In this document: piece by piece, positions 3,275-56,219 of the stretch
Layout: each line of letters begins with the position of its first letter
How positions within the stretch are numbered: the stretch's first letter is position 1
Assembly (NCBI GenBank): GCA_963759775.1
Contig: CAVXAH010000001.1
Location: forward strand, 208,682-272,681
Direction: 5' to 3'
Length of the DNA: 64,000 nt
Source of the DNA: an uncultured bacterium
GTDB taxonomy: Bacteria; Patescibacteriota; Minisyncoccia; Phycocordibacterales; Phycocordibacteraceae
Program-made: the position numbers and the translations under genes
The notes under the pieces: generated by a model
Told to the model about the DNA's origin: nothing
What the model saw: only the letters and a program-made list of their open reading frames with translations
Database searches by the model: none

Positions 3275-3321
3275 GATAGCAAAGAGCGCGCAGGCTTGGC
3301 CTGCGCGCTCTTTGAAAACAT

Positions 3322-5998: not shown

Positions 5999-6925
5999 TC
6001 ACTCTTCCCTTTCCAGACAGTAAGTGCCTCTTCCTGCAGCGCACGGGCATACGAAAATGTGAGCGGCCATGGCGCGCTTGAGGCAAGAGCGGCGCACGTA
6101 ATCGCCTGTAGGTTCTAGAGTTGCTTGGTCTGGGGTTTGTCCGCCTGAAAGAAACACAATGCCCGCCACCTCCTTTGGAACCGTCTTCATGAGTACCGCG
6201 ACCGTGTCCTCCGCCACCTCTTCCGGCGTATCTTTCTTTCCGCTTTCGCTTCCAGAAATCGCCATTGCGGTTTTGAGTATCACTCCCGGGAGGTCTACCG
6301 CCTGCTCATGCAGTACGTGAAAAAGTGCGCCGAGCGTTTCTTGCAAGACTTCCTTCGCACGAGCGCGCGAGTGCCTACCCGAAAGAAGTACTTCCGGCTC
6401 AAGGATAGGCACGAGACCTGCCTTTTGTGCCTCTTTCGCATAGCTTGCGAGACGTTTTACGTTTTCAAGAATCGCAGCAGAAGTGGGCAGCTTGTCGCCT
6501 TCAATACGAATGACTGCGCGCCATTTTGTAAACACCGCCCCCCGGTCGGCAAAGGTTTTGAGCCGCTCCGGCAAACCAAGGAGTCCTTTGGTAATAAGCT
6601 CATTCGCGCTTTCCAAAAAGGGCTCCGTACCCTCATCTACTTTTATACCTGGGGCAATACCGCGCTGTGCGAGAGATGTGGTAAAAAGCATGCCGTCCTC
6701 GCCTTCTTGTACAAATGTTTCTGCAAATAAAATGACCCCTGAAAGGTAGTCCGGAACGCCTGGCGCGTTTAAGAAAAGTTCGCGAAACTTCTTGCGCATT
6801 TCAAGCGTCGTATCAATACCATAGGAAGCAAGACGCTTGTCAGCAGAAGACACGCTCTCGTCGGCTGCGAGAATGCCTTTCCCGGGAGATACGAGGGCAC
6901 GTGCGCGCTCTCTAAGGTCCATCAT
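5999..6925 (-). CDS. fba: fructose-bisphosphate aldolase, class I (frame lost near 6115; homologous C-terminus continues to 5926)
   Basis: GKGILAADESVSSADKRL and FLSGGQ are class I aldolase motifs. After ...DQATL the conserved NLQAIT..SSAPWPLTFSYARALQEEAL continues in another frame to TAG 5926-5928. Confidence 0.85.
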   Translation of the reverse strand: MMDLRERARALVSPGKGILAADESVSSADKRLASYGIDTTLEMRKKFRELFLNAPGVPDYLSGVILFAETFVQEGEDGMLFTTSLAQRGIAPGIKVDEGTEPFLESANELITKGLLGLPERLKTFADRGAVFTKWRAVIRIEGDKLPTSAAILENVKRLASYAKEAQKAGLVPILEPEVLLSGRHSRARAKEVLQETLGALFHVLHEQAVDLPGVILKTAMAISGSESGKKDTPEEVAEDTVAVLMKTVPKEVAGIVFLSGGQTPDQATLEPTGDYVRRSCLKRAMAAHIFVCPCAAGRGTYCLEREE

Positions 6926-6958
6926 GCGTGGATTTTAGCATGCTAAAATCCACGCATG
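6923..6958. promoter_or_regulatory. 36-bp perfect palindrome, candidate divergent leaderless promoter/operator between fba and the PfkB kinase
   Basis: Sequence is CATGCGTGGATTTTAGCATGCTAAAATCCACGCATG. Each arm reads TGcTAAAAT-N6-ATG. The left CAT is the fba start codon. Confidence 0.6.
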
Positions 6959-26812: not shown

Positions 26813-26848
26813 GAAAACAATACTACCATATATGGTAGTATTGTTTTC
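26813..26848. promoter_or_regulatory. 36-bp perfect palindrome abutting the yerC-like start codon (candidate operator / bidirectional extended -10 promoter)
   Basis: Sequence is GAAAACAATACTACCATATATGGTAGTATTGTTTTC. It reads TGgTAGTAT-N7-ATG(26849). The core AATACTACCATATATGGTAGTATT recurs at 27304-27345 and 50972-50995. Confidence 0.6.
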
Positions 26849-27280
26849 ATGAAAAAGAAAATAAATGACTTATCGGAAGCCGAACGCATCAAAACACTGG
26901 ACGCGCTCTACACCGCCGCAAGCAGTGTGCATACTCGTGCTGACATGAAAGCCTTCTTACGAGATCTGCTCACGGTGAGTGAGCGTGTGATGCTTGGGCG
27001 ACGTATTCTTATCGCACGCCTTTTGCTCCAAGGAGAGACGCGAGATGCTATACGCACGCGAACTGGTGCAGGGTACGCCACCATAGAGAGAGTGGGACAG
27101 TGGCTTGAAGACCAAATGCCTGGGTATGAGCAGGCTATTACGGGCATGGAGCGCGAATTTAAGACGCGGAGATTTTATATGCACTACAGCGCGCGCGAGG
27201 TATTGCGACGCCTTAAGAAACGCTACCCTCTCCACTTTCTGCTCTTCCCCGAACCATCTTCAAAAAAGAACCGCTCTTAA
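26849..27280 (+). CDS. TrpR-like YerC/YecD family DNA-binding protein
   Basis: LRDLLTVSERVMLGRRILIARLLLQGETRDAIRTRTGAGYATIERV matches the YerC/YecD Trp-repressor-like family. Confidence 0.75.
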   Translation: MKKKINDLSEAERIKTLDALYTAASSVHTRADMKAFLRDLLTVSERVMLGRRILIARLLLQGETRDAIRTRTGAGYATIERVGQWLEDQMPGYEQAITGMEREFKTRRFYMHYSAREVLRRLKKRYPLHFLLFPEPSSKKNRS

Positions 27281-27303: not shown

Positions 27304-27345
27304 CAAAAGTAGAATACTACCATATATGGTAGTATTCTACTTTTG
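27304..27345. promoter_or_regulatory. 42-bp perfect palindrome between convergent yerC-like and secA genes (operator copy and/or terminator)
   Basis: Sequence is CAAAAGTAGAATACTACCATATATGGTAGTATTCTACTTTTG, with the same 24-bp core as at 26813-26848. Confidence 0.55.
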
Positions 27346-27388: not shown

Positions 27389-29921
27389 TTAGGCTTGAGG
27401 ATTTCCGATCACTATCCATCCATCCTCTTCCACGAGCCGTTCTGCTTTTTTATATTTGAGAGTCTGTGTTTCCTCACCCTTCTTGATGATAACGACATCG
27501 TTCCTGCCGTAGGCCGAGGTTTTCACGAGCGGAGCTTGTGCACTTCCTTCTTCACTCCCCTGCGCTACAAGCCGTGCGCGAGTCTTTTCTTCTTCAGTGC
27601 GAATGCGGGCGTAGTCGGCGGGAGCAATATTTGGCACCGTGCGACACACCGCTTCTTTGATTGCGGTTTCAAGCGCGCGGTAGCGCGAAAGTCCTTCGCG
27701 TCGGTACTCGATCAGAGGATCTCTTTGTCCGTACGCACGAAGTGACACTGAGCGCCGAAGGTAATCCATAGTATCCAAATGCTCCAACCAGAAAGTGTCG
27801 GTTGCCTGGAGCAGAAGCCGGCGCAAGAGCGCAATAAGTGATTCTGCACCGTATTCTTTTTTCTTCGCTTCAAGTGCTGTCTCGCCGCGTCATCTCCCTC
27901 GACGAGGTCACGAATGATGCTTCTCGACTTCTTGCGCAGAGCCCATGAGGGCGGCGCGACGGCGTGCGTATATAGCAAGACGCTGGGTGTTCATCACATC
28001 GTCGTAGGCAAGCACTTGTTTGCGTGAGTCAAAGTTGAACCCTTCTATGCGCGTTTGCGCCGTCTCAAGGGACTTCGTAATCATGGAGCTCTCTATGGCT
28101 TCGTCTTCGGGAATGCCAAACGTTACCCATCACTTTCTTCAAGGTCTCCGACGCAAAAACGCGCATGAGTTTGTCTTCAAGCGACACATAGAACCTCGTT
28201 TCGCCCGGGTCGCCCTGACGGCCGGAACGACCGCGCAGCTGGTTATCAATACGACGCGCGTCGTGACGCTCGGTACCAATAATCGCAAGACCACCCGCGG
28301 CGAGAACCTCATCGCGCTCTGCTGGGTCGGTCGGCATGCCACCGAGCTTAATGTCAACACCTCGACCTGCGAGGTTTGTTGCTACCGTCACACGACCTTT
28401 GTGTCCCGCCTGCGCGATGATTTCTCCTTCGCGCTCGTGGTTTTTTGCGTTCAAGACTTCGTGCGGCACGCCGGCATCCCGCAGATACGAGCTCACCACC
28501 TCGTTGTCTTCAATAGAAACGGTACCCACCAAGACCGGCTGACCTTTCTCGTGCCGCGCCTTCACGTCGCGCGCAACTGCTTTGTATTTGCCGGCGGCTG
28601 TTTGGAAAATAAGGTCGTCAAAGTCCTTACGTGCGATTGGCTTGTGGGTTGGCACGACTACCACCTCAAGTCCGTACACCGTATAAAACTCTTCCTCCGA
28701 GCTAAGCGCGGTGCCTGTCATGCCCGCAAGTTTTGTGTACATGCGGAAATAATTTTGGAAGGTAACGGTTGCGTAGGTACGCGTCTCTGCTTTCACCGCG
28801 ACTCCCTCTCTCGCTTCAATAGCCTGATGCAGGCCGTCTGACCATCTTCGCCCTGGCTGCATGCGTCCGGTGAATTCATCCACAATCACAATCTCGCCGT
28901 CCCGCACGACGTACTCTTTGTCTTTACGGAAAAGTGCTTTCGCGCGCACCGCTGTCTCTAGGTGATGCGCGTACTTCATGCCGCCCTCGGTATAGATATT
29001 CTCCATGCCGAGCGCCTCTTCTGCCTTTTTGATGCCTGCATCCGTGAGTTGTATCGCCTTTTGCTTCTCATCCACACTGTAGTCTTCCCCTTCCTTGAAG
29101 CTCTCGGTAATCAATGCGAAACGTTCGTAGAATTTTTCGGAATCGCCCGCGGGGCCAGAAATGATGAGCGGGGTCCGCGCTTCGTCTATTAAAATGGAGT
29201 CGATTTCGTCGACTATGGCAAACGCATGCTCGCGCTGGTTTATCTGCGATGCGTCGTACGCGGTGTTGTCTCGCAAGTAGTCAAAACCGAGTTCGTTGTT
29301 GGTTGCGTAGGTAATGTCTGCTCCATAAGCTTCTTTTTTTGTCGCCGGTCGCAGATAGTCGTAAAATACGCGGAACGAGCCCTGCTCGTCACGCTCTGCA
29401 TCCTCGGCTTTCCGCACGTGTGATGCGTCGTATACATAGGAACCCGAAGAGGTGATGACGCCAACAGAAAGTCCGAGTGCCGCGTACACCTGTCCCATCC
29501 ACGCGCCGTCGCGGCGCGCGAGGTAGTCGTTTACCGTCACAATATGAACGCCCTTCCCCACAACCGCGGCGGCTGTTGCTGGAAGTGTAGCAACGAGCGT
29601 CTTTCCCTCTCCGGTTCGCATCTCGGCTATTTTGCCGCGAAGCAGAGCGAGCCCTCCCATGAGCTGTACGTCGTAGTGGCGTTCATTTAAAGTGCGGCGG
29701 GCGGCTTCACGCACGAGCGCAAAGACAAGTGGTACATCAGCGTCATGAACACCCTTCGAGGAACGCGTTCGCAGATCAGCTATTTTTTCCTTAAGCTCGT
29801 CATCGGTGAGTGCTTCCGCGAACCCCGCGAGAGCGTTTACGGAAGACACGACCTCGGCCGCGGACTTCAAAAAAGCCGCGGATTGGTTCTTAGAAAACAG
29901 CTTAGAGAGGAAACTCGCCAT
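27389..29921 (-). CDS. secA: preprotein translocase ATPase SecA (reading frame broken at least three times between approx 27880 and 28135)
   Basis: [14 protein letters not shown] and [14 protein letters not shown] motifs in ORF 28065..29921. Homologous sequence ([24 protein letters not shown].., [10 protein letters not shown]..) continues in other frames. It ends in ORF 27389..27826 ([13 protein letters not shown]). Confidence 0.85.
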
Positions 29922-33824: not shown

Positions 33825-34571
33825 ATGAAACTGACCCTCTCCATAAAAGAAGCTCTGAAAAAGAGGTTGCACAAAGAGGGCGCATTATATGCTCTCTTGG
33901 CAAAGTTGAGGCGGCGACCGCTTCCAGAGTTCTTCCATTCAGGTTTCCATGGAGACCACTATCTCATTGCGATTGCTGACGCACTTCTTAATCGTGTTGA
34001 TCAATTTATCGAGACCGGGTCAAGCACTGGCTCTACCATCGTGTTTGTCGCAGAGAAATTTCCTTCCCTTCCATTGTGGGGTTGCGAGCCGGACAAAAAT
34101 GCATTCTCATTTGCTCGAACGAAGACAGGAAAATATCCAAATATTCATTTAATTAAAAAGGTTTCCCCAGACTTCTTATATGACATCGCGAAAGAGAACC
34201 GTGGCCTGACCGCACAAGATACTCTTTTCTGGTTGGATGCGCATGCGAATGGCTTTTCGTGGCCATTGAAGAAAGAGATAGCGTTTATTACCTCTCATTT
34301 TGAGAAAGCCTATATTCTGATTGACGATTTTCTCGTTCCTGGAAGGCCGTGGTTTGGTTATGACGCTTATGACGGACAGGTGTGCTCCATGGATTTCATA
34401 CGTGACTCGCTCGACAAAAAGCAATCCTACACCGTGTATTATCCAACGTATCGTGATCAGACTTCTGCATTTTGCAAATTGCGTGGGTGGGTACTCATAG
34501 AATTCGGCCATGGGGAGCCTCTTCCTGCATTGCTTTTAGATAAAGTTGAAAAATCCCCTCATGTCAATTAG
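33825..34571 (+). CDS. hypothetical protein, possible SAM-dependent methyltransferase fold
   Basis: The FIETGSSTGSTIVFVAEKF glycine-rich loop resembles class I methyltransferases. Weak call. Confidence 0.35.
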   Translation: MKLTLSIKEALKKRLHKEGALYALLAKLRRRPLPEFFHSGFHGDHYLIAIADALLNRVDQFIETGSSTGSTIVFVAEKFPSLPLWGCEPDKNAFSFARTKTGKYPNIHLIKKVSPDFLYDIAKENRGLTAQDTLFWLDAHANGFSWPLKKEIAFITSHFEKAYILIDDFLVPGRPWFGYDAYDGQVCSMDFIRDSLDKKQSYTVYYPTYRDQTSAFCKLRGWVLIEFGHGEPLPALLLDKVEKSPHVN

Positions 34572-35874
34572 AGAACACATTTATTCTTTGCTTCGGAAAT
34601 CAGAGCAGTACCTGAAAACCGACATGGTGTACCTGACTCACGGAGGTTTTTGGCTTACTCTTTGGCAGACAAGCACCGCGCTTTCTTCTCTGGCTATTGC
34701 TGTTGCATTTGCCTATCTGCTTCCCAAAGAGGTTTTTGGAAATTATAAATATATTCTTTCCCTAGCGGCTATAGCTGGATCACTCTCTCTCACGGGTCTC
34801 GGTGGAGCCGTGACACAGGCCGTTGCTCAGGGGTTTGAACAAACGCTCAGTGCCGCTTTCCGCGCCAATTTTCGTTGGGGTATGTTCGTCACTGCTACTT
34901 CATGGGTAATGGCAGCGTATTATTTTATTAATGAGAACAATACAATTGCTACTGCCCTCTTTTTTATAGGAATCATTCTCCCTTTTCTTAATAATTTCCT
35001 TTTATACGGAGCCTTTCTTAGTGGAAAAAAATACTTTAAAGAAAATGCTCTCAAAGGAATTGTTCTTGGTATTGTCCCGGCAGTAGCCGTTATTAGTACT
35101 TTCTTTATCACGAACAACGCGGCCTTCCTCGCTATTATATTTCTCTTTTCAAGTGCGGTGGTTGCAGGTTTATTTTATTTTCTTACCGTACGTACTCATC
35201 GGCCTGTGGGTGGAGTAAGCCTAAAAGCGCTTTCCTATGGAAAACATGCAAGTGTTATGGGAGTAGTGGGAGTTGTTGCTGTTCAAATAGAAAGCGTACT
35301 TATTTTTCATTATCTTGGAGCTGCGGAACTCGCTGCGTACGCTCTTGCCCTCGCTTTTCCACAACATATCTGGAATTTGTTTCGAAATGTTTCAACTCTG
35401 GCTCTTCCAAAATTCTCTGAGAAAAGCTTCGTGGGTGTGAAGTTTCCTCTTACACGTAAAATATTTACCCTCTCACTCGCCGCCGGGATAATTACGGCCT
35501 TATATGTCTTTCTAGCGCCGCTTCTTTTTGAGATTCTTTTCCCCCAATATACGGAGTCAGTTCTCCTTTCACAAGTCCTTTCGATATCCCTCCTTGGCAT
35601 AGCAAGCGTCATACCTCTTACCGCACTACAGGCATCGCTCAAGAAAAAAAGAATGTATGCGTATACATTCGTGAGTAACGTATTCCATATTGTCGTTGCT
35701 TTGATATCAATTCCTATTTGGGGATTGTGGGGTGCAGTCGCAGCATATATTGCAGCGCGCTTGTTTTCTCTCGCACTCTCAATCTTTCTTACCAGGACTA
35801 TCGAAACGGGAGACAAATTTGACGATTCTTCTAAAAATACGGAAGATGAGATACCGAAACCAATGATGGGATGA
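34546..35874 (+). CDS. polysaccharide flippase (Wzx/MOP-like, multi-TM)
   Basis: 442 aa with about 12 TM segments, in a polysaccharide cluster context. Confidence 0.6.
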   Translation: MKNPLMSIREHIYSLLRKSEQYLKTDMVYLTHGGFWLTLWQTSTALSSLAIAVAFAYLLPKEVFGNYKYILSLAAIAGSLSLTGLGGAVTQAVAQGFEQTLSAAFRANFRWGMFVTATSWVMAAYYFINENNTIATALFFIGIILPFLNNFLLYGAFLSGKKYFKENALKGIVLGIVPAVAVISTFFITNNAAFLAIIFLFSSAVVAGLFYFLTVRTHRPVGGVSLKALSYGKHASVMGVVGVVAVQIESVLIFHYLGAAELAAYALALAFPQHIWNLFRNVSTLALPKFSEKSFVGVKFPLTRKIFTLSLAAGIITALYVFLAPLLFEILFPQYTESVLLSQVLSISLLGIASVIPLTALQASLKKKRMYAYTFVSNVFHIVVALISIPIWGLWGAVAAYIAARLFSLALSIFLTRTIETGDKFDDSSKNTEDEIPKPMMG

Positions 35875-36681
35875 GTATGGGAAAATCCTAAGAAATTTAG
35901 GAAGTGGTTGTATAGCGTGTCTTAACGGAATATCGTGCCACAGAAGACGATCACATCCGTCTATGACGAGAGTTCCGTCATACAGTTGAAATACTCGTGT
36001 TTGATATTTCTTCCCGTCAAAGAGCGAGTGGATTTGGTTATCTTTCAAGCCAAAAACCGAAAAAAATTCTTCCCTTACAAAAAATCCATTGAGTCGTGTC
36101 GCGGCGATAAGCTCATATCCCTTTCTCTTGCCAAGTTCCGTCAACGCGCGGAGAGATGATCCTTGGCTGATTTTCATATCTTTTTCTTGAATAAATATAA
36201 TATCGTCAGGAATGGAGGGGTTAAACTCAATCACCACGACGTGTGGTTTATAGGTGCTTATTGAATTCCAAATATGGTAATCATTCCCATCGACATCTAC
36301 CGACAAGAGATCAAAATCTTTAGGAATACGGGTTTTCGCTAATATTTCGTCCAGTGTATTTTCTCCCTCGAAAGAAACCATCGCATGCACGCTTGTAACC
36401 TTTGGATTATTCGTATATGTCTTTTGTAAAGACGCGTGTCTATTTTTGTCGCCTTCGATGAGAACACTGGACCATCCTTTGTTAAGAATGAGATTCCTTG
36501 TATTGCTAAAATGTATACCGTCCCAGGCACCAATTTCCACACACCATTTCTCTTCTTTGGTAGGTAACATTTGAAAGATTTTATCAATGATTCCATCTTC
36601 CCCTGTTTGAGAAAACGTGTTTTCTCCAAATGTTTGCAGCTGGAAATGTGTGGTATCAGTCTCTGTTTTTCCGTTAGTCAT
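35779..36681 (-). CDS. methyltransferase-like protein (FkbM-like)
   Basis: CVEIGAWDGIHFSNTRNL..VLIEGD motif. Start taken at ATG 36679-36681, which forms an ATGA overlap with the upstream stop. Confidence 0.45.
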   Translation of the reverse strand: MTNGKTETDTTHFQLQTFGENTFSQTGEDGIIDKIFQMLPTKEEKWCVEIGAWDGIHFSNTRNLILNKGWSSVLIEGDKNRHASLQKTYTNNPKVTSVHAMVSFEGENTLDEILAKTRIPKDFDLLSVDVDGNDYHIWNSISTYKPHVVVIEFNPSIPDDIIFIQEKDMKISQGSSLRALTELGKRKGYELIAATRLNGFFVREEFFSVFGLKDNQIHSLFDGKKYQTRVFQLYDGTLVIDGCDRLLWHDIPLRHAIQPLPKFLRIFPYSSHHWFRYLIFRIFRRIVKFVSRFDSPGKKD

Positions 36682-37721
36682 AGCGATGTAAAATATGAAG
36701 ATAATTTTTCCGCAAACTGATCCGCGGAGCACTGTTCGACCGCAAATGCCCGAGCATTCTCTCCGAGTTTACGCCTTTCGTCTTTATTTCGCAAAAGTCT
36801 TTCTATAGTCGCATGCAGAGCTCTCTCATTATTCCGCTCAACGAGAGCCGCACTTCTCCCGTCTTCTACATATGACTCCATTGTGTTGGTTCTTGTAACC
36901 ACAATGGCCTTCCCCATCGCCATCGCTTCAACGAGTGTCGAACAGCCCATCGCGTTGTTTCTTTCATGGTCCGGTATATTGAGGGGCAACACAACAAGCT
37001 TAGCGCGCGCATACTGCTCCACAAGCTCCTGAGGAGTGAAGTTGTGAACGGTCACATTCTTCGGGAGTGGTTCCAGATGCTTTAACTGATTTGGCAATGC
37101 CGTAATTTTCACTTCGATATCCAAATCTTTCACCGCTTCAAACAGCGTCTTGAAGTCCCGCCCAGGATCTCTTCCTATGCTTAAAATGAAATTCTCTTCT
37201 GGAACCTTCTGCGGTTTGAAAAATTCAATATCAGTACCTAAGTGTAAAAATAATGTTTTTTTATGGGGGAAAAGCGCCCTCAGCGCATTTTCCTCACTCT
37301 CGGAAATCGTAACAACCCCGTCGGTGCGTGAGGCTAAATAATACAGAAGTTTTTGTTTAAATGTCTTTCGTTCTCCTATTAACCCGGTTACATTGAAGTC
37401 TAGTAGTACCCATTTTGGTTTCTTTATATGGAGAACCGCCTTTATAAAGAGCGAGCCGAACGCGGTTGAAGTAAATACGGCGTCATGTTTCAGAAATAAA
37501 GGGAATAGGGGTAGATGAACAGCGTGTATGTTGAGAATGTGTCGTCTTAAGAAAACTGCAAATGAGCGGGGTATATACTGCTCAAGCTCAAGATAGCGCG
37601 CGTCAATTCCATATTTTCGCATGCGAAACATACCAAAAAAGTGACCGTCATGGCCCTCCCTGGCTTTGATGGCACTGAGTTCATCACGTTTAATTCGATT
37701 GAATAGAAAGAGGACTTTCAT
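36678..37721 (-). CDS. glycosyltransferase, GT4/group 1
   Basis: C-terminal GT1 pattern (NAMGCSTLVEAMAMGKAIVVT). Start taken at MKVLFLF (ATG 37719-37721). Confidence 0.75.
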   Translation of the reverse strand: MKVLFLFNRIKRDELSAIKAREGHDGHFFGMFRMRKYGIDARYLELEQYIPRSFAVFLRRHILNIHAVHLPLFPLFLKHDAVFTSTAFGSLFIKAVLHIKKPKWVLLDFNVTGLIGERKTFKQKLLYYLASRTDGVVTISESEENALRALFPHKKTLFLHLGTDIEFFKPQKVPEENFILSIGRDPGRDFKTLFEAVKDLDIEVKITALPNQLKHLEPLPKNVTVHNFTPQELVEQYARAKLVVLPLNIPDHERNNAMGCSTLVEAMAMGKAIVVTRTNTMESYVEDGRSAALVERNNERALHATIERLLRNKDERRKLGENARAFAVEQCSADQFAEKLSSYFTSL

Positions 37722-37728
37722 TGATATA

Positions 37729-38907
37729 TCATTTCTCGTTGAGGAGGTCATTTATGGTAGTTGATTTCGTGCTCATTTTCTTTTCCACATACGTATGAGC
37801 GCGCACCACCATACTTTTCACCGCTTCTGATTTATCGACGCAGGCCTTCACTTTACTCCTCAATTTCTCTATGCCGTCAGTCTCCTCCCAGAAAAACCCC
37901 CGATCACCGTCTTCTCCAATTGTCTCAACAATACCTCCGACCCTGCTCCCAAGGACTGGAACATTCATGTACATTGCCTCCCAAAACACGAGTCCCAGGC
38001 CTTCAGAGTCTGATAGCAATATGAAAGCATCTGCGTCGCGATAAAAATCCCATATGTTTTGTCGGTCAATGTTGCCGGCGAAAAAAACACTTTTCTCTAA
38101 AGATAGATCCGCAACTAATTTCTTTAGTCGGTCCTCCAAACTCCCTTGCCCAACAATCATGAGGATAAGATCTCCATCATTTATTTTTTTTAGTGCGCCT
38201 ATCAACCCGTCAAAGTTTTTTTCAGGTTCCAGTCTACCCACAGACAATATGATCTTTTTGTCTTTGGGAATGTGGTACATCTCTCTTATCGTGTTTTTTC
38301 GTGAGGTTTCTATATGCTTTTGGTCACGTGTAATTGTGTTCGGGTTAAATATTTTAATTTGACTTGGCTTAAAGCCGATTTCCTTCGCATATTGCGCCGT
38401 TGTTTCGTTTATAGCAAAAACCTGGTGGATAATGTGCTTTCCTAGGAATTCCATGAGTCGTTGGTATACCAGAGGCCAAAGACGATACTTTCGCGTGGAG
38501 ATAAGTTTCGTGGGAAGATTTGTTAAAATAATTACCACCTTACATCCCAAAAATAACCGCGGATACAGACTGCCAAAAATTGAAGGAAAGTCATATAGGA
38601 GAACGATATTGGGCTTAAATGCATATTTCTCGAGCAATAACGGCGTCATAAAGATATTTGCAATGTCGTATAACACACGCAATTTCCCCACTCGTGCCTT
38701 AAGGTGGGTGGTTTGTAGGTTTTCGGAAATCTCTTTATGGTACGATTTAATGCTCCAATTTAAGGAAAAAATCTTGTTGTGTTCTGGGTTTACGCCATCT
38801 CGCTCAAATTTTTCAATGATTTCTTTAGTATTGACTTCATACAAATTCCTCCAGTCAAAAGAAAAAAGTAGTATATGTATAGATTTGTTATCTAATAGCC
38901 TGTTCAT
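37729..38907 (-). CDS. glycosyltransferase, GT4/group 1
   Basis: EGLGLVFWEAMYMNVPVLGSRVGGIVETI. Confidence 0.75.
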   Translation of the reverse strand: MNRLLDNKSIHILLFSFDWRNLYEVNTKEIIEKFERDGVNPEHNKIFSLNWSIKSYHKEISENLQTTHLKARVGKLRVLYDIANIFMTPLLLEKYAFKPNIVLLYDFPSIFGSLYPRLFLGCKVVIILTNLPTKLISTRKYRLWPLVYQRLMEFLGKHIIHQVFAINETTAQYAKEIGFKPSQIKIFNPNTITRDQKHIETSRKNTIREMYHIPKDKKIILSVGRLEPEKNFDGLIGALKKINDGDLILMIVGQGSLEDRLKKLVADLSLEKSVFFAGNIDRQNIWDFYRDADAFILLSDSEGLGLVFWEAMYMNVPVLGSRVGGIVETIGEDGDRGFFWEETDGIEKLRSKVKACVDKSEAVKSMVVRAHTYVEKKMSTKSTTINDLLNEK

Positions 38908-39527
38908 ATTCTTTCCTCATTTTTCTTTATCACCATAAGATATGATCCTCGCAAAAATGGCGTCACTTGAGCAATGAGGGAAGAGAGAAAAAATAGTATT
39001 TTATTTCTTGACCATATTCCGTAATAAAATATGCTCTCGATGCGAAGACCCTGAATAGAATCAAAAGATTCCAGACTCACCTTACGAAAAAGCTTTCTAA
39101 TCGCCATGGGCGGATAGGGTTTTATGTGGCCGAATGTGTGCCAGATCGTCTTGGGCATCGGAGTAATAAGAACGATATTTCCACCCGGCTTCAAGACCCG
39201 CTTCATTTCACGAAACATCTTTTGAGCATCATCAGGAAACAGGTGCTCAATGATATTGCTACAATGAACGACGTCGAAAAAAGAGTCCTCGTAGGGAATG
39301 GCTGTCGCGCTTCCCTCTTTCACCTTTAACCCCCTTTTTTGGAGCTCCCGCACCATAGTAACGTTCGTGTCAATGCCGTATGCGCTGCTTGTATTATTCT
39401 CTAAGATTTTTCCTTCACCACAGCCGATGTCAAGAACGGTCTTCTCTTTTAGAAAAATCTCCTGAATTGGATTTTTCTTTCGCATCCAATATGAGAGTAG
39501 CTTAAACAAAAAATAAATGTTGTTCAT
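38904..39527 (-). CDS. class I SAM-dependent methyltransferase
   Basis: VLDIGCGEGK motif I and the Methyltransf_11-like layout. Confidence 0.75.
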   Translation of the reverse strand: MNNIYFLFKLLSYWMRKKNPIQEIFLKEKTVLDIGCGEGKILENNTSSAYGIDTNVTMVRELQKRGLKVKEGSATAIPYEDSFFDVVHCSNIIEHLFPDDAQKMFREMKRVLKPGGNIVLITPMPKTIWHTFGHIKPYPPMAIRKLFRKVSLESFDSIQGLRIESIFYYGIWSRNKILFFLSSLIAQVTPFLRGSYLMVIKKNEERI

Positions 39528-39624
39528 GTTATAGCAGAAAGAATGTCCTGCATCTTGGTAATTAAACCACTTAGTGAATGATTTTTAGCAATTTCTTCTC
39601 TTAAGAGTCTGTGTGTATGAATTC

Positions 39625-39861
39625 TCATATCAGGTGATGTGTTGAGCGTCTTTTGCATAGGTTTTGAATGTGCGCGAACGTGCAAGTGCCGCAGGCAATT
39701 ACCGCATCAACTGGATTGTCCCTTTCCTCGAACGCCATGATGCCTATCATACTCCCTTCAAAATCGCTTGAATACGCTCGGCTGTTGAGAGAATTTGCAC
39801 CCGGTTCGCATACCGTGCGGGATAGCAAATTGCGCTTGCATAGAGTAATTTCATGGCGCAA
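39625..39861 (-). CDS. hypothetical small protein (weak)
   Basis: 78-aa ORF filling a gap between operon genes. No motif recognised. Confidence 0.25.
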   Translation of the reverse strand: MRHEITLCKRNLLSRTVCEPGANSLNSRAYSSDFEGSMIGIMAFEERDNPVDAVIACGTCTFAHIQNLCKRRSTHHLI

Positions 39862-39869
39862 CTGTCTCT

Positions 39870-41006
39870 CTAAAAAGTTTTGTGTAAATCATCCGCGATG
39901 CGGGACGGAATATTTCCTTGTTCAGCGAGGTGCGCCCGGGCTTTCGGTTCGGCGTGCATAGGAAGAGATAAACGAACCTCAGTATCTTCAATAAGTCCGA
40001 CAATGTGGTACGAGAGCGCGGTTGGGTCTGCAACGGGCGCAGAAAGCACGTCCTCGTATCCCTGGAATACCTCGCCCACAATACCGACATCTGTGGTTAT
40101 GATGGGAATTTTCGCGAGTGCGGCTTCAAGAAGAGTCCGTCCGTATCCTTCGTATGCGCTTGCCTGGATGTACGCCTGGGCGCTTTGCATCATTCCCCAC
40201 GCCGTTTCCGCGGGAAGCCAACCCTTCACGAATATCACGCGGTCGGAGAGTCCAAGACGCCGCGCCATGCGCTCGAGCCGTCCTCGCTCCCGCCCTTCCC
40301 CAACAACGACGAGACCGATCATTGGGTAATGCCCTGCAACAAGCTTGAGCGCCGCAAGTATGTCCTCAATGCGTTTCTCGGGCTCCAGCCTGCCTACGGT
40401 GATGAGCGTAAACGTAAAGGGGCGAGTAGGAAGTGGAGCCTTCGGAGGAAGTGTGTAGCCAACTGCAACGGGAATAATCGACGGGTCCGGGATATTTTTT
40501 CCATAGCGCGCAATAAGAGAATCTTTGACGCGTTTTGAAACGACGCGGATACCATTTGCTTTGGGAAGCACCCGATCGGCGATTTTTCGGCGGAAGCGAT
40601 TTAAAAGCGGCATATGCACGCGAGGGGAGCGCCAATTCCCGCTTCGCACGAACCAGGGTGACAGAAAATCCGTATGCACTTGAATGTGAAGTTTTGCATT
40701 CGTCCCCTCAACAGCCTTAAGCGCCGCGAGCCCGTGTTCAAATGGGTCCTGCGCGGACACTATTTCTATATGTTCGGTGTCTATAAGGACGCGCGCGAGC
40801 TTTGCGAGCGCGCGAACTCGAAAGAACTTTGATGCAAACACCGGGTGCAAGTGAAGGGTTCCTTCATCAATACGTAGTGTCCGAGGAGGTGCTGAGGAAA
40901 GAATATGGAGCTCCCCTATTGCCGCGGCGTACGTGCGCATACGCGCGCGCGCAGAGCTTGCGGCATCAAAAATTGAGGGGTCGTTTGAGATAAAGAGGAC
41001 CTTCAT
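39870..41006 (-). CDS. glycosyltransferase, GT4/group 1
   Basis: EGYGRTLLEAALAKIPIITTDVGIVGEV. The true start is MKVLFISND at ATG 41004-41006. The track extension to 41084 reads through the adjacent element. Confidence 0.8.
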   Translation of the reverse strand: MKVLFISNDPSIFDAASSARARMRTYAAAIGELHILSSAPPRTLRIDEGTLHLHPVFASKFFRVRALAKLARVLIDTEHIEIVSAQDPFEHGLAALKAVEGTNAKLHIQVHTDFLSPWFVRSGNWRSPRVHMPLLNRFRRKIADRVLPKANGIRVVSKRVKDSLIARYGKNIPDPSIIPVAVGYTLPPKAPLPTRPFTFTLITVGRLEPEKRIEDILAALKLVAGHYPMIGLVVVGEGRERGRLERMARRLGLSDRVIFVKGWLPAETAWGMMQSAQAYIQASAYEGYGRTLLEAALAKIPIITTDVGIVGEVFQGYEDVLSAPVADPTALSYHIVGLIEDTEVRLSLPMHAEPKARAHLAEQGNIPSRIADDLHKTF

Positions 41007-50518: not shown

Positions 50519-51811
50519 CTATTGTTTTAGTACTAAATTATCTGCAATCTTGTATATATCTCCAGCGCCCATGGTCATGACAGCATCACCCTCTTTTGGT
50601 TCATTCCCAAATAAACGTTCAATTTCTTCAAAGGTGGACGCTGATGCATTTTGACCGTTGCCGCGAATACGCTCTGCAAGCAGTGCGCTTGAAATAGATT
50701 TGTCTGGCTTTTCGCGCGCAGCATAAATGGGGGCGATCACAACTTCATCAGTGTCAACAAATGCAGCCGCAAAGTCCTCAAACAAATCACGCGTGCGACT
50801 GTAGAGGTGAGGGTGAAATGCGACGAACACTTTTCCTTTCGTCTGCGCACGGAGCGCTTTGAGTGTTTCTTTTATTGCCGTCGGGTGGTGTGCGTAGTCG
50901 TCATACACCTCTGCCCCGTTCTTCGTCTTCCCTTTGTATTCAAAACGTCGCCATGTGCCTTGAAAGTCAGCAATACTACCATATATGGTAGTATTCTCGA
51001 CCTTGGGGAGAATAAAACGTGCGGCGGCAAGTGCGGCGCGCGCGTTCATGCGGTTAAATTCGCCCGGGAGTTTGAGTGGAGGCACTTCCTCTTTGGTGTA
51101 GTCGATGATGTGGGCCCGCGCCTCGCGGAGCACTTCTTTGATGTTTGGATTATTTGGATCGGTAACGATCGCACCGTCTGCGGGTACGCGGGCAACGGCT
51201 TTTCGGAAGGTGTCTTGGAGGGCGACGAGCGAGGGAAACCAGTCCGTGTGGTCCCACTCAAGATTCGTAATAACGAGAATGTGCGGCGAGAGCTCAAGAA
51301 GATGGTCTCTGTATTCGCATGCCTCAACCACAAAGAGGTCGTTTGCTCCATCTGCAAGATAGTTACTCCCGAAATCTTTCACGATTGAACCTATGATGGC
51401 AGTTGGGTGCGCCCCCGCGTCTTTCAAAATTTTGGCGAGCATGCCGGTTGTAGTCGTCTTCCCATGCGTCCCCGAGATGGCGATGGTACGCTTCCCTGCC
51501 GAGACTTTTCCAAGCATCCCGAAATATGAAAGCTGTGGAATGCCGAGCTCTTTTGCGCGAGCGCGCTCGGGGTTGCTTTCCGGTACTGCGTCGCTGTACA
51601 CCACTGCCTCGACACCTGACGGAACATTTTCCTTTTTCTGTCCTATCTTGACCTTGATACCCTTGGATTCAAGAAGAACCGTTGTAGCAGACGCTTCGCG
51701 ATCAGAACCGGAAACAGTCGCACCTTCGTGTGCGAACAGCTGCGCAAGTGCCGACATACCGATACCACCGATGCCGACAAAATGAATTCGCTTTGGGTGT
51801 TTATACGCCAT
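50519..51811 (-). CDS. murC: UDP-N-acetylmuramate--L-alanine ligase
   Basis: IHFVGIGGIGMSALAQLF and ISGTHGKTTTTGM. Confidence 0.9.
   Translation of the reverse strand: MAYKHPKRIHFVGIGGIGMSALAQLFAHEGATVSGSDREASATTVLLESKGIKVKIGQKKENVPSGVEAVVYSDAVPESNPERARAKELGIPQLSYFGMLGKVSAGKRTIAISGTHGKTTTTGMLAKILKDAGAHPTAIIGSIVKDFGSNYLADGANDLFVVEACEYRDHLLELSPHILVITNLEWDHTDWFPSLVALQDTFRKAVARVPADGAIVTDPNNPNIKEVLREARAHIIDYTKEEVPPLKLPGEFNRMNARAALAAARFILPKVENTTIYGSIADFQGTWRRFEYKGKTKNGAEVYDDYAHHPTAIKETLKALRAQTKGKVFVAFHPHLYSRTRDLFEDFAAAFVDTDEVVIAPIYAAREKPDKSISSALLAERIRGNGQNASASTFEEIERLFGNEPKEGDAVMTMGAGDIYKIADNLVLKQ
50972..50995. promoter_or_regulatory. 24-bp perfect palindrome inside murC, identical to the yerC-flanking core
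   Basis: AATACTACCATATATGGTAGTATT encodes NTTIYGSI of MurC. Confidence 0.55.
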
Positions 51812-53121
51812 ACGATTTCACAATAGTATTGAACTCGTCGCCCCGATCATACTCGTTTTTAAACATTCCGAACGACGCGAAAGCGGGAGAAAAAAGAATG
51901 GCGTCGCCTGGGTTTGCATGCAACCACGCATCAGCAACCGCTTTCTTGAGCGAGTCGTAAACAGGAGCGTCAGGTAGCAAGCTCTTGATACGGTCCGTAC
52001 CGGTACCGGCAAGCAAAATCACTCGCTTCGTAACTGTGGGCAGTGCAAAAAGAAGTGCATCCATCTCAAGTCCTTTGTCCGCTCCGCCCATGATGAGTAC
52101 CGATTGGTTTTGGGATGAGAGCTTTTAGGGCGGCGACTGTCGCTTCGGGAGTTGTCGCGGTGGTGTCGTTGTATATTTGGATTTTACCGCGCTCAAAACA
52201 GAGCTCGAGACGACCAGAAACTCCTTTAAATGCCTCTAGCACTTTGCGACTCACGTCATCCGAGATTCCGTACGTGCGAGCGGTGGCGAGTGCGAGCGCG
52301 GCATTATAGCGATTGTGCTCCCCGGGAATCTTGAGCTTCCAGGTGTCCGGCAATTTCGCCGCATCAACCACAGCAATTTTTGACAAGATACGGTCGCCGT
52401 ATTTCTCAATGATGGTTGGCGCGCACTGGCTACCTAGCACCAGCGTATCTCCTTCTTTTTGATTTAAGAAAATGTTCGCCTTATCTCCCAGATACGTATC
52501 CAAATTATTCTTATAGTAGTTTAGGTGGTCGGGGAAAAAGGTCGTAAAAACACCAATGTGCGGGCTTATTTTAGCCTCTCCAAAACCTTGACACTGCCAC
52601 GAATCAAGTTCAAGAACCGCCGTATGTTCTGGTGTCGCTTCCGGCAGAAGTCCTAGTGTTGAGACACCGCGTACGTTGCCGCCCAAAAGCACTGACTTCC
52701 CTGCCTCCTTGAGAATTGCGGCAACCATATGCGTGACGGTTGTTTTGCCGCGCGTGCCGGTAATGCCGATAAGAGGGACTTTTGAAAGTTCCGCAAAAAG
52801 ATCCGCGCTCATGCGGACGGGAATACCGTTCTTTCTTGCTTCGGCTATATAGGGAGAATCGAGCGGTACGCCAGCACCTTTCACAATAAGATCGCGCTCG
52901 CGGAAATCTTCGAGGCGATGTTCGCCAAGCACAAATTCTATATTGGAAAATCCTGCAAGTTCAGCAACCGACGAATCAAGTTGTTCGTGCGTCTTTAGGT
53001 CAGTGACGGTGAGTTTTGCACCACAGGAAGCAAGGTATTTAGCATCTCCCACACCTCGACCAAGCAAGCCGAGGCCCATCACGGTGATTCGTTTGTCGCG
53101 GAAAAATGCTGACGCATCCAT
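51801..53121 (-). CDS. murD: UDP-N-acetylmuramoylalanine--D-glutamate ligase (frame lost near 52123-52126)
   Basis: ORF 52066..53121 (ITGTRGKTTVTHM) and ORF 51801..52091 (MGGADKGLEMD...SPAFASFGMFKNEYDRGDEF) are the two parts of MurD. They are joined across an A4/T4 run. Confidence 0.85.
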
Positions 53122-53730: not shown

Positions 53731-53800
53731 TGGTGCAAGCGGAAGGAGTCGAACCTTCGACCGCTCGAGTATCAGTCGAGTGCTCTACTGCCCAGTGAGC
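53731..53800 (-). pseudogene. truncated tRNA-Ile(GAU)-like copy (D-arm to CCA, no 5' acceptor strand found)
   Basis: GCTCACTGGGCAGTAGAGC-A-CTCGACTGATACTCGAG-CGGTC-GAAGGTTCGACTCCTTC-CGCTTGC-ACCA. The 30-nt anticodon-arm region is identical to the intact gene. The T-arm and acceptor differ but still pair. Confidence 0.5.
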
Positions 53801-53897
53801 CGAATCAAAAGTGAATGTCTCCATTCATTTTTGTGAGGCGAGCGCAGGGAGAAAGCCGTTCCTACGGCTTACTGGCTGAGCTACTATGTGCTGTGCT

Positions 53898-53973
53898 TGG
53901 TGCAAGTGCCAGGGATCGAACCTGGGACCGCTCGAGTATCAGTCGAGTGCTCTACCAGCTGAGCTACACTTGC
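53898..53973 (-). tRNA. tRNA-Ile (anticodon GAU), CCA encoded
   Basis: GCAAGTG-TA-GCTC-AGCTGGTA-GAGC-A-CTCGA-CTGATAC-TCGAG-CGGTC-CCAGG-TTCGATC-CCTGG-CACTTGC-ACCA. Confidence 0.9.

Positions 53974-54726: not shown

Positions 54727-56217
<1,491 letters not shown>

Positions 56218-56219
<2 letters not shown>

Follow-up and report, generated by a model that had tools for sequence, protein, structure and literature searches.

A palindrome inside murC of a Patescibacteria genome is a copy of the palindromes that bracket a yerC-like gene

Palindromes of the window and the yerC-like gene

The window analysed in this work is a stretch of 64,000 nucleotides from contig CAVXAH010000001.1 (GenBank assembly GCA_963759775.1) of an uncultured bacterium under Patescibacteriota. 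The element in question is a 24-bp perfect palindrome, AATACTACCATATATGGTAGTATT, that brackets a yerC-like gene and is also read in frame within murC. The search of the whole window identified exactly three copies of the 24-mer, which are located at 26819-26842, 27313-27336, and 50972-50995. No further match was found in the window when up to 3 mismatches were allowed. Degenerate copies are absent, with at least 8 mismatches at every other position, and the identity of the 24-mer within the window is all-or-none. The 24-mer did not occur in any of 100 dinucleotide-preserving shuffles of the window, where its expected number is 0. These results agree with the original prediction, made from the sequence alone, that an exact match at three places in 64 kb cannot be chance.

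Two of the copies flank the yerC-like gene (26849-27280, plus strand), which encodes a YerC/YecD-type TrpR-like helix-turn-helix (HTH) protein of 143 aa that presumably binds the palindrome. The upstream copy belongs to a longer perfect palindrome of 36 bp (26813-26848), which occupies most of the 61-bp divergent spacer between obg and yerC and ends at the yerC ATG; it is the presumed autoregulatory operator. The downstream copy likewise lies within a longer perfect palindrome, of 42 bp (27304-27345), which is located where the 3' ends of yerC and secA converge, has an A-run and a T-run in its flanks, and is presumed to be a second operator and a hairpin. The third copy, in murC, is 24 kb apart from the yerC-like gene. 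None of the three palindromes is assigned to a strand.

The YerC-like protein scores 56.7 bits against PF01371 (cutoff 27) and 43 against TIGR02531, which is barely over the cutoff of 42.2. Its nearest solved structures are the YerC-type TrpR-like proteins 3FRW, 3KOR, and 3G1C (profile search, 1e-8 to 3e-11). The domain scan of the protein identified the TrpR HTH alone, with no nuclease, transposase, or HUH/Y1 domain. The recognition helix is GAGYATIERV, and the protein ends in a conserved C-terminal tail, KKRYPLHFLLFP. The tail pattern R.KK.YPLHFLLFP (residues ~118-143; window 27200-27277) is nearly invariant in YerC-like proteins of the candidate phyla radiation (CPR) and is missing from the Firmicutes structures 3FRW, 3KOR, and 3G1C (104-119 aa). 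The tail looks like a short interaction or membrane-targeting motif. The AlphaFold monomer of the protein has low confidence (predicted local distance difference test score of 65), and the tail helices are also modelled with low confidence. YerC of B. subtilis is HisR, a repressor of the TrpR family, and TrpR and HisR each bind 20-bp palindromes and each autoregulate (PMC9413887).

The yerC loci of other genomes were collected through an unbiased metagenome scan that was seeded with conserved YerC peptides and did not use the palindrome, which yielded 80 loci. The bracket counts refer to the 64 unique yerC loci with both flanks readable and to palindromes of at least 14 bp. The upstream palindrome is present in 63 of these 64 loci, with its centre 15-58 nt before the ATG, and the downstream palindrome is present in 58; both sides carry a palindrome in 57 loci. 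The central 14 nt are identical between both copies in 46 of the 57 bracketed loci. The centre of the palindrome is nearly always ATATAT, and the arms are symmetric and lineage-specific, such as ACTACC, ACTTCC, ACTATC, ACTACG, AGTACC, and ACTATG before the ATATAT. Other bracket palindromes are GACTTGATATATCAAGTC, CACCCATATATGGGTG, and GGATTGATATATCAATCC. The gatB-obg-yerC-secA order is kept in the closest relatives though their arms differ (ACTACC, ACTTCC, CCTCC, ACTATC, ATTTCC, AGTACC, and GCTACC). Since synteny is kept while the arms change, the site pair co-evolves in place, and a mobile yerC cassette is ruled out for the close relatives.

The scaffold of the YerC-like proteins is nearly invariant, and variation is highest in helix D and at the exposed, DNA-facing positions Y, A, and E of the recognition helix GAGYATIERV. 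The helix type Y-x-TIER accompanies the arms ACT[AT][CT]C-CATATATG, the helix GVG[KT]DTVWR accompanies GACTTG, and RVGVTTIAK accompanies CACCC. Asp at helix position 2 always occurs with the TGATATATCA centre among the loci listed. At matched overall identity, helix identity is 0.67 for same-arm pairs compared with 0.50 for other pairs, and 0.73 compared with 0.54, for pairs that are phylogenetically non-independent. The arms co-vary with the hypervariable residues of the recognition helix, and these comparisons are support for, and not proof of, a link to the protein. The choice of binder is well supported because the protein belongs to the TrpR family, HisR and TrpR bind palindromes, and helix and arms co-vary. 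It is quite probable, on this comparative evidence, that the YerC-like protein binds the palindrome.

A second palindrome centred on ATATAT is clustered near some yerC genes. It is CACTTTGATATATCAAAGTG in two copies in locus L149 (3620-3743), and another such palindrome, TCTTATCATATATGATAAGA, is present in three copies near yerC in locus L118 (80-264).

The in-frame site in murC and its counterparts in other genomes

The murC gene (50519-51811, minus strand) encodes UDP-N-acetylmuramate--L-alanine ligase and matches the Pfam families Mur_ligase, Mur_ligase_M, and Mur_ligase_C. The palindrome at 50972-50995 encodes residues 273-280, N-T-T-I-Y-G-S-I, directly preceding ADFQGTWRRFE and between the middle and C-terminal Mur ligase domains. 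The original prediction of an in-frame 24-bp palindrome read as NTTIYGSI before the FQG motif is therefore confirmed at this position. The MurC peptide survey comprised the 113 closest homologues having the FQG motif. The spacing from AAAR to FQG is constant in these 113 homologues, with or without the site, and when MurC was aligned with solved MurC structures in HMMER, no gap occurred at the palindrome. As the length is unchanged in both comparisons, the insertion of a mobile segment is ruled out and the palindrome has replaced existing codons, which bears out the earlier description of the site as coding sequence and not an inserted segment.

The common MurC peptide at the site among the 113 homologues is [ST]D.tI.eSLa. 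The peptides that correspond to the palindrome are TTIYGS in 8 homologues, TSIYGS in 6, TTIYRS in 3, and TTIYDS in 2, together with TIIYDS, TVIYDS, and others in one homologue each. The murC DNA was compared for seven TTIYGS genomes (the window, L018, L028, L059, L084, L179, and L180). The codons ACT ACC ATA TAT GGT AGT are exact in six of them, and the seventh matches 17/18 nt with one synonymous base apart (ACC for ACT). In the rest of murC, at positions with identical residues, codon identity is 0.39-0.55 (mean 0.46), and at that background all six site codons would agree by chance in ~1% of cases per genome pair. The six identical codons against this background therefore indicate that the constraint acts on DNA, and the palindrome appears to be kept by selection on the DNA itself. 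An alignment of murC orthologues had been proposed together with the original prediction; in it the palindrome is kept despite near-saturated synonymous divergence, and the codons are not scrambled. The shuffles and the codon comparison rule out chance or peptide constraint as the cause of the murC palindrome.

The other peptides come with other forms of the palindrome. The murC site DNA is AGACACTTCCATATATGGAAGTGTCT for TSIYGS (locus L181), ATACTATCATATATGATAGTAT for TIIYDS (L176), AGACACTACGATATATCGTAGTGTCT for TTIYRS (L177), and ACTGTCATATATGATAGT, with one asymmetry, for TVIYDS (L182). These arm variants in murC are those that bracket yerC in other metagenome loci, and the MurC residues (G to D, G to R, T to I or S) appear to follow the palindrome and not the reverse. 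The tree of MurC, constructed by the unweighted pair group method with arithmetic mean from roughly equidistant sequences, is unresolved; the site-bearing sequences are grouped only partly, and this tree does not separate one origin of the murC site from repeated gains.

The 18-nt core ACTACCATATATGGTAGT was searched in one genome per species of 185,579 species (596 Gb). The search identified 95 loci, of which ~80 are in metagenome-assembled genomes (MAGs) of Patescibacteria/CPR with 3-12 copies per MAG. The core-bearing CPR groups are Kaiserbacteria, Paceibacterota, Parcubacteria, Saccharibacteria, Falkowbacteria, and Moranbacteria. Other phyla account for ~14 matches compared with ~9 expected by chance, and no YerC homologue lies beside these non-CPR matches (Agathobacter, Bacillota, Treponema, and others); they were set aside for these two reasons. 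Nine of the CPR core loci are yerC flanks. A Saccharibacteria locus, L026, has the core beside a yerC homologue. Roughly half of the CPR core sites are within long open reading frames (ORFs). The palindrome has two open frames, and each of these sites is read in one of them (frame 1 is TTIYGS, frame 2 is LPYMVV, and frame 3 contains TAG).

The host genes are housekeeping genes, and the same position recurs between genomes. The site is present in murC, in the HhH-GPD/nth-like gene, and in dnaG of 5 genomes each, in trpS and pheT of 4 genomes each, and in the enolase gene (eno) and a reverse-transcriptase gene of 3 genomes each. The genes murD, uvrB, argS, alaS, miaA, dus, holB, and ygjP have the site in at least one genome each. 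Numerous sites are at or near Pfam domain boundaries, such as residue 92 of dnaG between the zinc ribbon and the catalytic core; the holB site is at residue 159, just past the N-terminal domain.

Copies within one genome tend to carry the same variant. The same core is present at yerC and in murC of the window, REEB12, and S40-23. Locus L176 carries ACTATC...GATAGT in murD and also in murC, and in locus L164 CACCCATATATGGGTG flanks yerC on both sides and is present again within uvrC and past the following gene. In 11 further yerC loci, one more copy of the own variant is located within 3 kb; no extra sites were found in three 20-kb yerC neighbourhoods bearing other variants. The complete Kaiserbacteria genome OY969413 has its yerC pair at 702 kb and further sites in trpS, dnaG, and the nth-like gene at ~258, 457, and 648 kb.

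The flanks of the core follow the consensus AAY-core-RTT. Of the 37 classified intergenic copies, convergent genes flank 13, tandem genes 17, and divergent genes 7 (mostly yerC 5' ends), and intergenic copies are frequently located a few tens of nt past stop codons. Complementarity of the flanks of intergenic cores is 0.62-0.88 at positions +1 to +7 compared with 0.25 expected. The predicted hairpin of the murC mRNA has -19 kcal/mol (z = -5.6), and its flanks extend the stem of the 24-mer by 7 pairs, of which 2 are G-U. The yerC copies have -22 to -28 kcal/mol, and the downstream one has -27 kcal/mol on either strand. The terminator scan made no call at the murC copy, which is mid-gene, and also left the downstream yerC copy uncalled, where the AT-rich 42-bp palindrome has only a TTTTG tail. 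No Rfam family overlaps any of the palindrome copies.

Several further observations concern the same palindrome or its hosts. The core is in frame 2 (LPYMVV) at the same reverse-transcriptase position in loci L017 (2551), L044 (5605), and L056 (1175), which belong to Kaiserbacteria and Saccharibacteria, and PF00078 is confirmed for L044. The core of the Saccharibacteria MAG CAYHYY01 (loci L004, L040, L047, L049, L058, L061, L071, L072, L075, L077, and L087) is within a dispersed repeat of at least 150 bp that has at least 8 copies and compensating proximal arms. This repeat adjoins CCCCGCGGCAAGCCGCGGGGATTGAAAC, which resembles a repeat of clustered regularly interspaced short palindromic repeats, and the palindrome of this MAG seems to travel within the larger repeat. 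Locus L176 has a 20-bp variant centred on ATATAT, CCCATCGATATATCGATGGG, at 6175-6194 inside an unannotated ORF of 142 aa between murC and rsmI.

The window also has features around these genes. Its murD (51801-53121, minus strand) carries CCTGTTTACGACTCG and no site where murD of loci L073 and L176 carries the palindrome. This murD is split by a frameshift into the overlapping ORFs 52066-53121 (351 aa) and 51801-52091 (96 aa), which is either an assembly indel or a pseudogene. The window secA (27389-29921, minus strand) is in three ORFs (28065-29921, 27908-28084, and 27389-27826), and SecA of the relatives is intact with 838-839 aa. The broken secA and the split murD suggest indel errors in the source assembly. 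The 16S rRNA gene (54727-56218, minus strand) and tRNAs (53901-53973 and 53742-53801) are just beyond the murD-murC block, and the relatives L176 and L186 have LAGLIDADG genes a few kb before murD, on the side of the 16S rRNA gene in the window. The region 34000-40000 has a low GC content of 0.41-0.43 compared with ~0.52 elsewhere and is possibly an acquired island. Apart from the palindromes that contain the 24-mer, the window has a single perfect palindrome of 16 bp or more, an unrelated one of 36 bp, CATGCGTGGATTTTAGCATGCTAAAATCCACGCATG, at 6923-6958.

Possible roles of the murC site

We favour, with somewhat better than even confidence, the reading that the murC palindrome is a selected intragenic cognate site of the CPR YerC/TrpR-like protein, where it would act as a roadblock or an anchor. 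A TrpR-type dimer would bind the 24-bp site, of which each genome has few. The upstream copy, which abuts the ATG, would autoregulate the yerC-like gene, and the downstream copy would double as a hairpin at the convergent 3' ends. The palindrome variant of each lineage would be written by substitution into tolerant stretches of housekeeping genes, with murC as a recurrent host. There is no promoter to repress inside murC, and the likeliest effect would be the occupancy of the DNA by the protein, which may be an obstacle to RNA polymerase across the murD-murC-rsmI block. Essential genes would carry further sites of this kind, dispersed over the genome, and the murC site would be one of the set. 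As for the effect of the intragenic sites, a roadblock is a possibility to which we give less than an even chance, and a purely architectural anchor is a more doubtful one. The term intragenic regulator site in the original prediction is a fair description, and the comparative data strongly back its proposed link to the YerC-like protein.

Several observations weigh against a cognate site with a role in murC. The murC sites of the variant lineages were matched to yerC brackets of other loci and not of the same genome. JAQVIY01 has a yerC bracket of the GCTACC variant, yet its murC matches only 9/18, and murC of OY969413 has no exact site. The murC site is thus optional, since some genomes with a yerC bracket lack it, and the mosaic repertoire of sites makes a regulatory need specific to murC unlikely. 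The cell-wall link that had been suggested for the site is not sustained by this distribution or by the presence of the same palindrome in trpS, dnaG, pheT, enolase, nth-like, uvrB, argS, and other genes. The many sites near domain boundaries suggest that their position may reflect the tolerance of the protein and not regulatory logic. Locus L177 carries two variants on one contig, CTCCATATATGGAG in murD (2328-2341) and ACTACGATATATCGTAGT in murC (3290-3315), one of which may date from an earlier specificity or belong to a second binder. The flanks of coding cores are complementary at 0.43-0.67 at positions +1 to +9 compared with 0.25 expected. This pairing of coding arms beyond the typical TrpR footprint hints at a hairpin or cruciform role or at palindrome-extending mutation, and structure or such mutation would seem to play a part also. 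Lastly, the YerC-like protein is the presumed binder on comparative grounds.

The same binder could instead use the dispersed sites as architectural anchors, like those of Noc/NBS, SlmA/SBS, MatP/matS, and ParB/parS, so that the gene position is irrelevant and the tail tethers the protein or binds a partner. This is rather unlikely in our estimate. The lack of a common function among the host genes, the location of many sites at Pfam domain boundaries or close to them, the mosaic repertoire of the genomes, and the small number and dispersal of the sites, as in OY969413, would all suit an anchor. The nearly invariant tail that 3FRW, 3KOR, and 3G1C do not have would also suit it, and a location inside genes is normal for the palindromic sites parS, NBS, and SBS. 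However, the YerC-like protein is not ParB-, TetR-, or MatP-like, we know of no precedent for a nucleoid organiser with the TrpR fold, there are just 3-12 sites per genome with no clustering seen, and the proposed tethering would be a role of a tail for which the AlphaFold2 confidence is low. A selfish palindrome that resembles repetitive extragenic palindromic (REP) sequences or miniature inverted-repeat transposable elements is less probable again. It would be spread or homogenised by gene conversion or template switching, with yerC associated and the murC copy a functionless passenger. Such an element would bracket yerC with cognate repeats as REPs bracket RAYT genes, and it would agree with the all-or-none identity, the arms that extend past the core even in coding DNA, the dispersed repeat of CAYHYY01, the reverse-transcriptase genes among the hosts, and the mosaic distribution between genomes. 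What argues against it is that the coding sites show no length change and so no insertion, that no nuclease or transposase domain accompanies the HTH of the protein, and that the yerC synteny is stable. Half-converted sites (ACTACC...GATAGT; TTIYDS) also look like stepwise point mutation, and the same murC position is kept across lineages with saturated synonymous sites.

A structure independent of any protein, namely a stem-loop of the mRNA or a cruciform of the DNA with an effect on translation, termination, or mRNA stability, is very unlikely. It could account for the strong hairpins (-19 kcal/mol in murC and -22 to -28 kcal/mol at yerC), for the long compensating arms and the A/T runs in the flanks of intergenic copies, and for the 13 of 37 intergenic copies between convergent genes. 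It leaves unexplained the invariant ATATAT centre, the single variant common to all copies of a genome, and the co-variation of the recognition helix; a terminator would be senseless for the upstream yerC copy in a divergent promoter spacer, no Rfam family matches, and the murC site is not terminator-like. We consider a selfish or purely structural explanation less likely than occupancy as a roadblock or anchor. The original prediction had also raised an internal promoter in murC, for example for rsmI, which is highly improbable. The central TATAT does resemble a -10 element, and promoters of CPR are poorly known. Two sigma-70-like matches were found at the murC site compared with 1.2 expected from shuffles, and the best one, the sole 9/12 match, is antisense and uses the central TATAT; the consensus scan found none at the yerC copies. 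The start of rsmI is ~670 bp from the site, and the other intragenic sites have no consistent relation to a downstream start. An internal promoter or terminator at murC was rejected as these consensus scans are at chance level.

A tentative wider picture is that of a fast co-evolving pair of TrpR-fold protein and palindrome, whose sites, overwritten onto essential genes, would be genome-wide roadblocks or anchors that could brake growth globally or tether the chromosome. The Patescibacteria/CPR have tiny genomes, few regulators, and almost no experimental genetics. The literature search for the motif and for TrpR in CPR returned nothing relevant, and the system is not described there. The findings in this work would identify, for one large CPR clade, a small regulator that is near-universal there and the exact DNA site that goes with it. 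They also give rules for the co-evolution of protein and site, by which binding specificity becomes testable by helix residue, and they provide a rare case of a DNA-binding motif that overrides protein-coding constraint in essential genes. The palindrome signature could help to assign contigs to lineages. Should the intragenic sites prove functional, they would represent an unusual control or organisation of a minimal genome.

Comparison with known systems

The closest known systems include TrpR and HisR (YerC), which share with the system here a PF01371/TIGR02531 protein, a perfect palindrome of ~20-24 bp (the known operators have 18-20 bp), a copy of the site that overlaps the own promoter region in an autoregulation layout, and lineage-specific motifs as reported for HisR (PMC9413887). 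In contrast to TrpR and HisR, no amino-acid biosynthesis regulon is seen here. The sites are in murC, murD, trpS, dnaG, pheT, eno, nth-like, uvrB/C, and other genes or at 3' ends, so that the extra sites occupy housekeeping coding sequences and 3' ends and not promoters. The gene here is bracketed on both sides, the centre is the invariant ATATAT where the HisR motif is TTTAnnnnnnTAAA, and the protein has an extra C-terminal tail.

The nucleoid systems parS/ParB, NBS/Noc, SBS/SlmA, and matS/MatP also have short palindromic sites at few to tens per chromosome. Their sites are often in coding sequence and sometimes at orthologous positions, such as parS within parB/spo0J, which is similar to the sites here. 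The protein here has the TrpR fold and belongs to an unrelated family. The sites in OY969413 are dispersed with no clustering seen at ori or ter (the origin position being not established), unlike those of ParB/parS, and the sites here change rapidly from lineage to lineage, in contrast to the nearly universal chromosomal parS.

The REP/RAYT elements resemble the system here in the cognate repeats that flank the gene, in the repeat that co-varies with the protein, and in the dispersed copies. They differ from it as no HUH/Y1 domain is present here and the copies number 3-12 and not hundreds, with about half of them intragenic without insertion. The Rickettsia palindromic elements (RPE) are likewise palindromes read in frame inside conserved protein genes. 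However, RPE are insertions of ~100-150 bp that add a peptide, whereas the palindrome here replaces codons with no length change. The intragenic operators of CodY, CcpA, and PurR are similar to the roadblock proposed here, as a repressor site inside the transcribed region would block elongation. Those sites are degenerate and confined to one operon, whereas the sites here are identical perfect palindromes in many unrelated essential genes.

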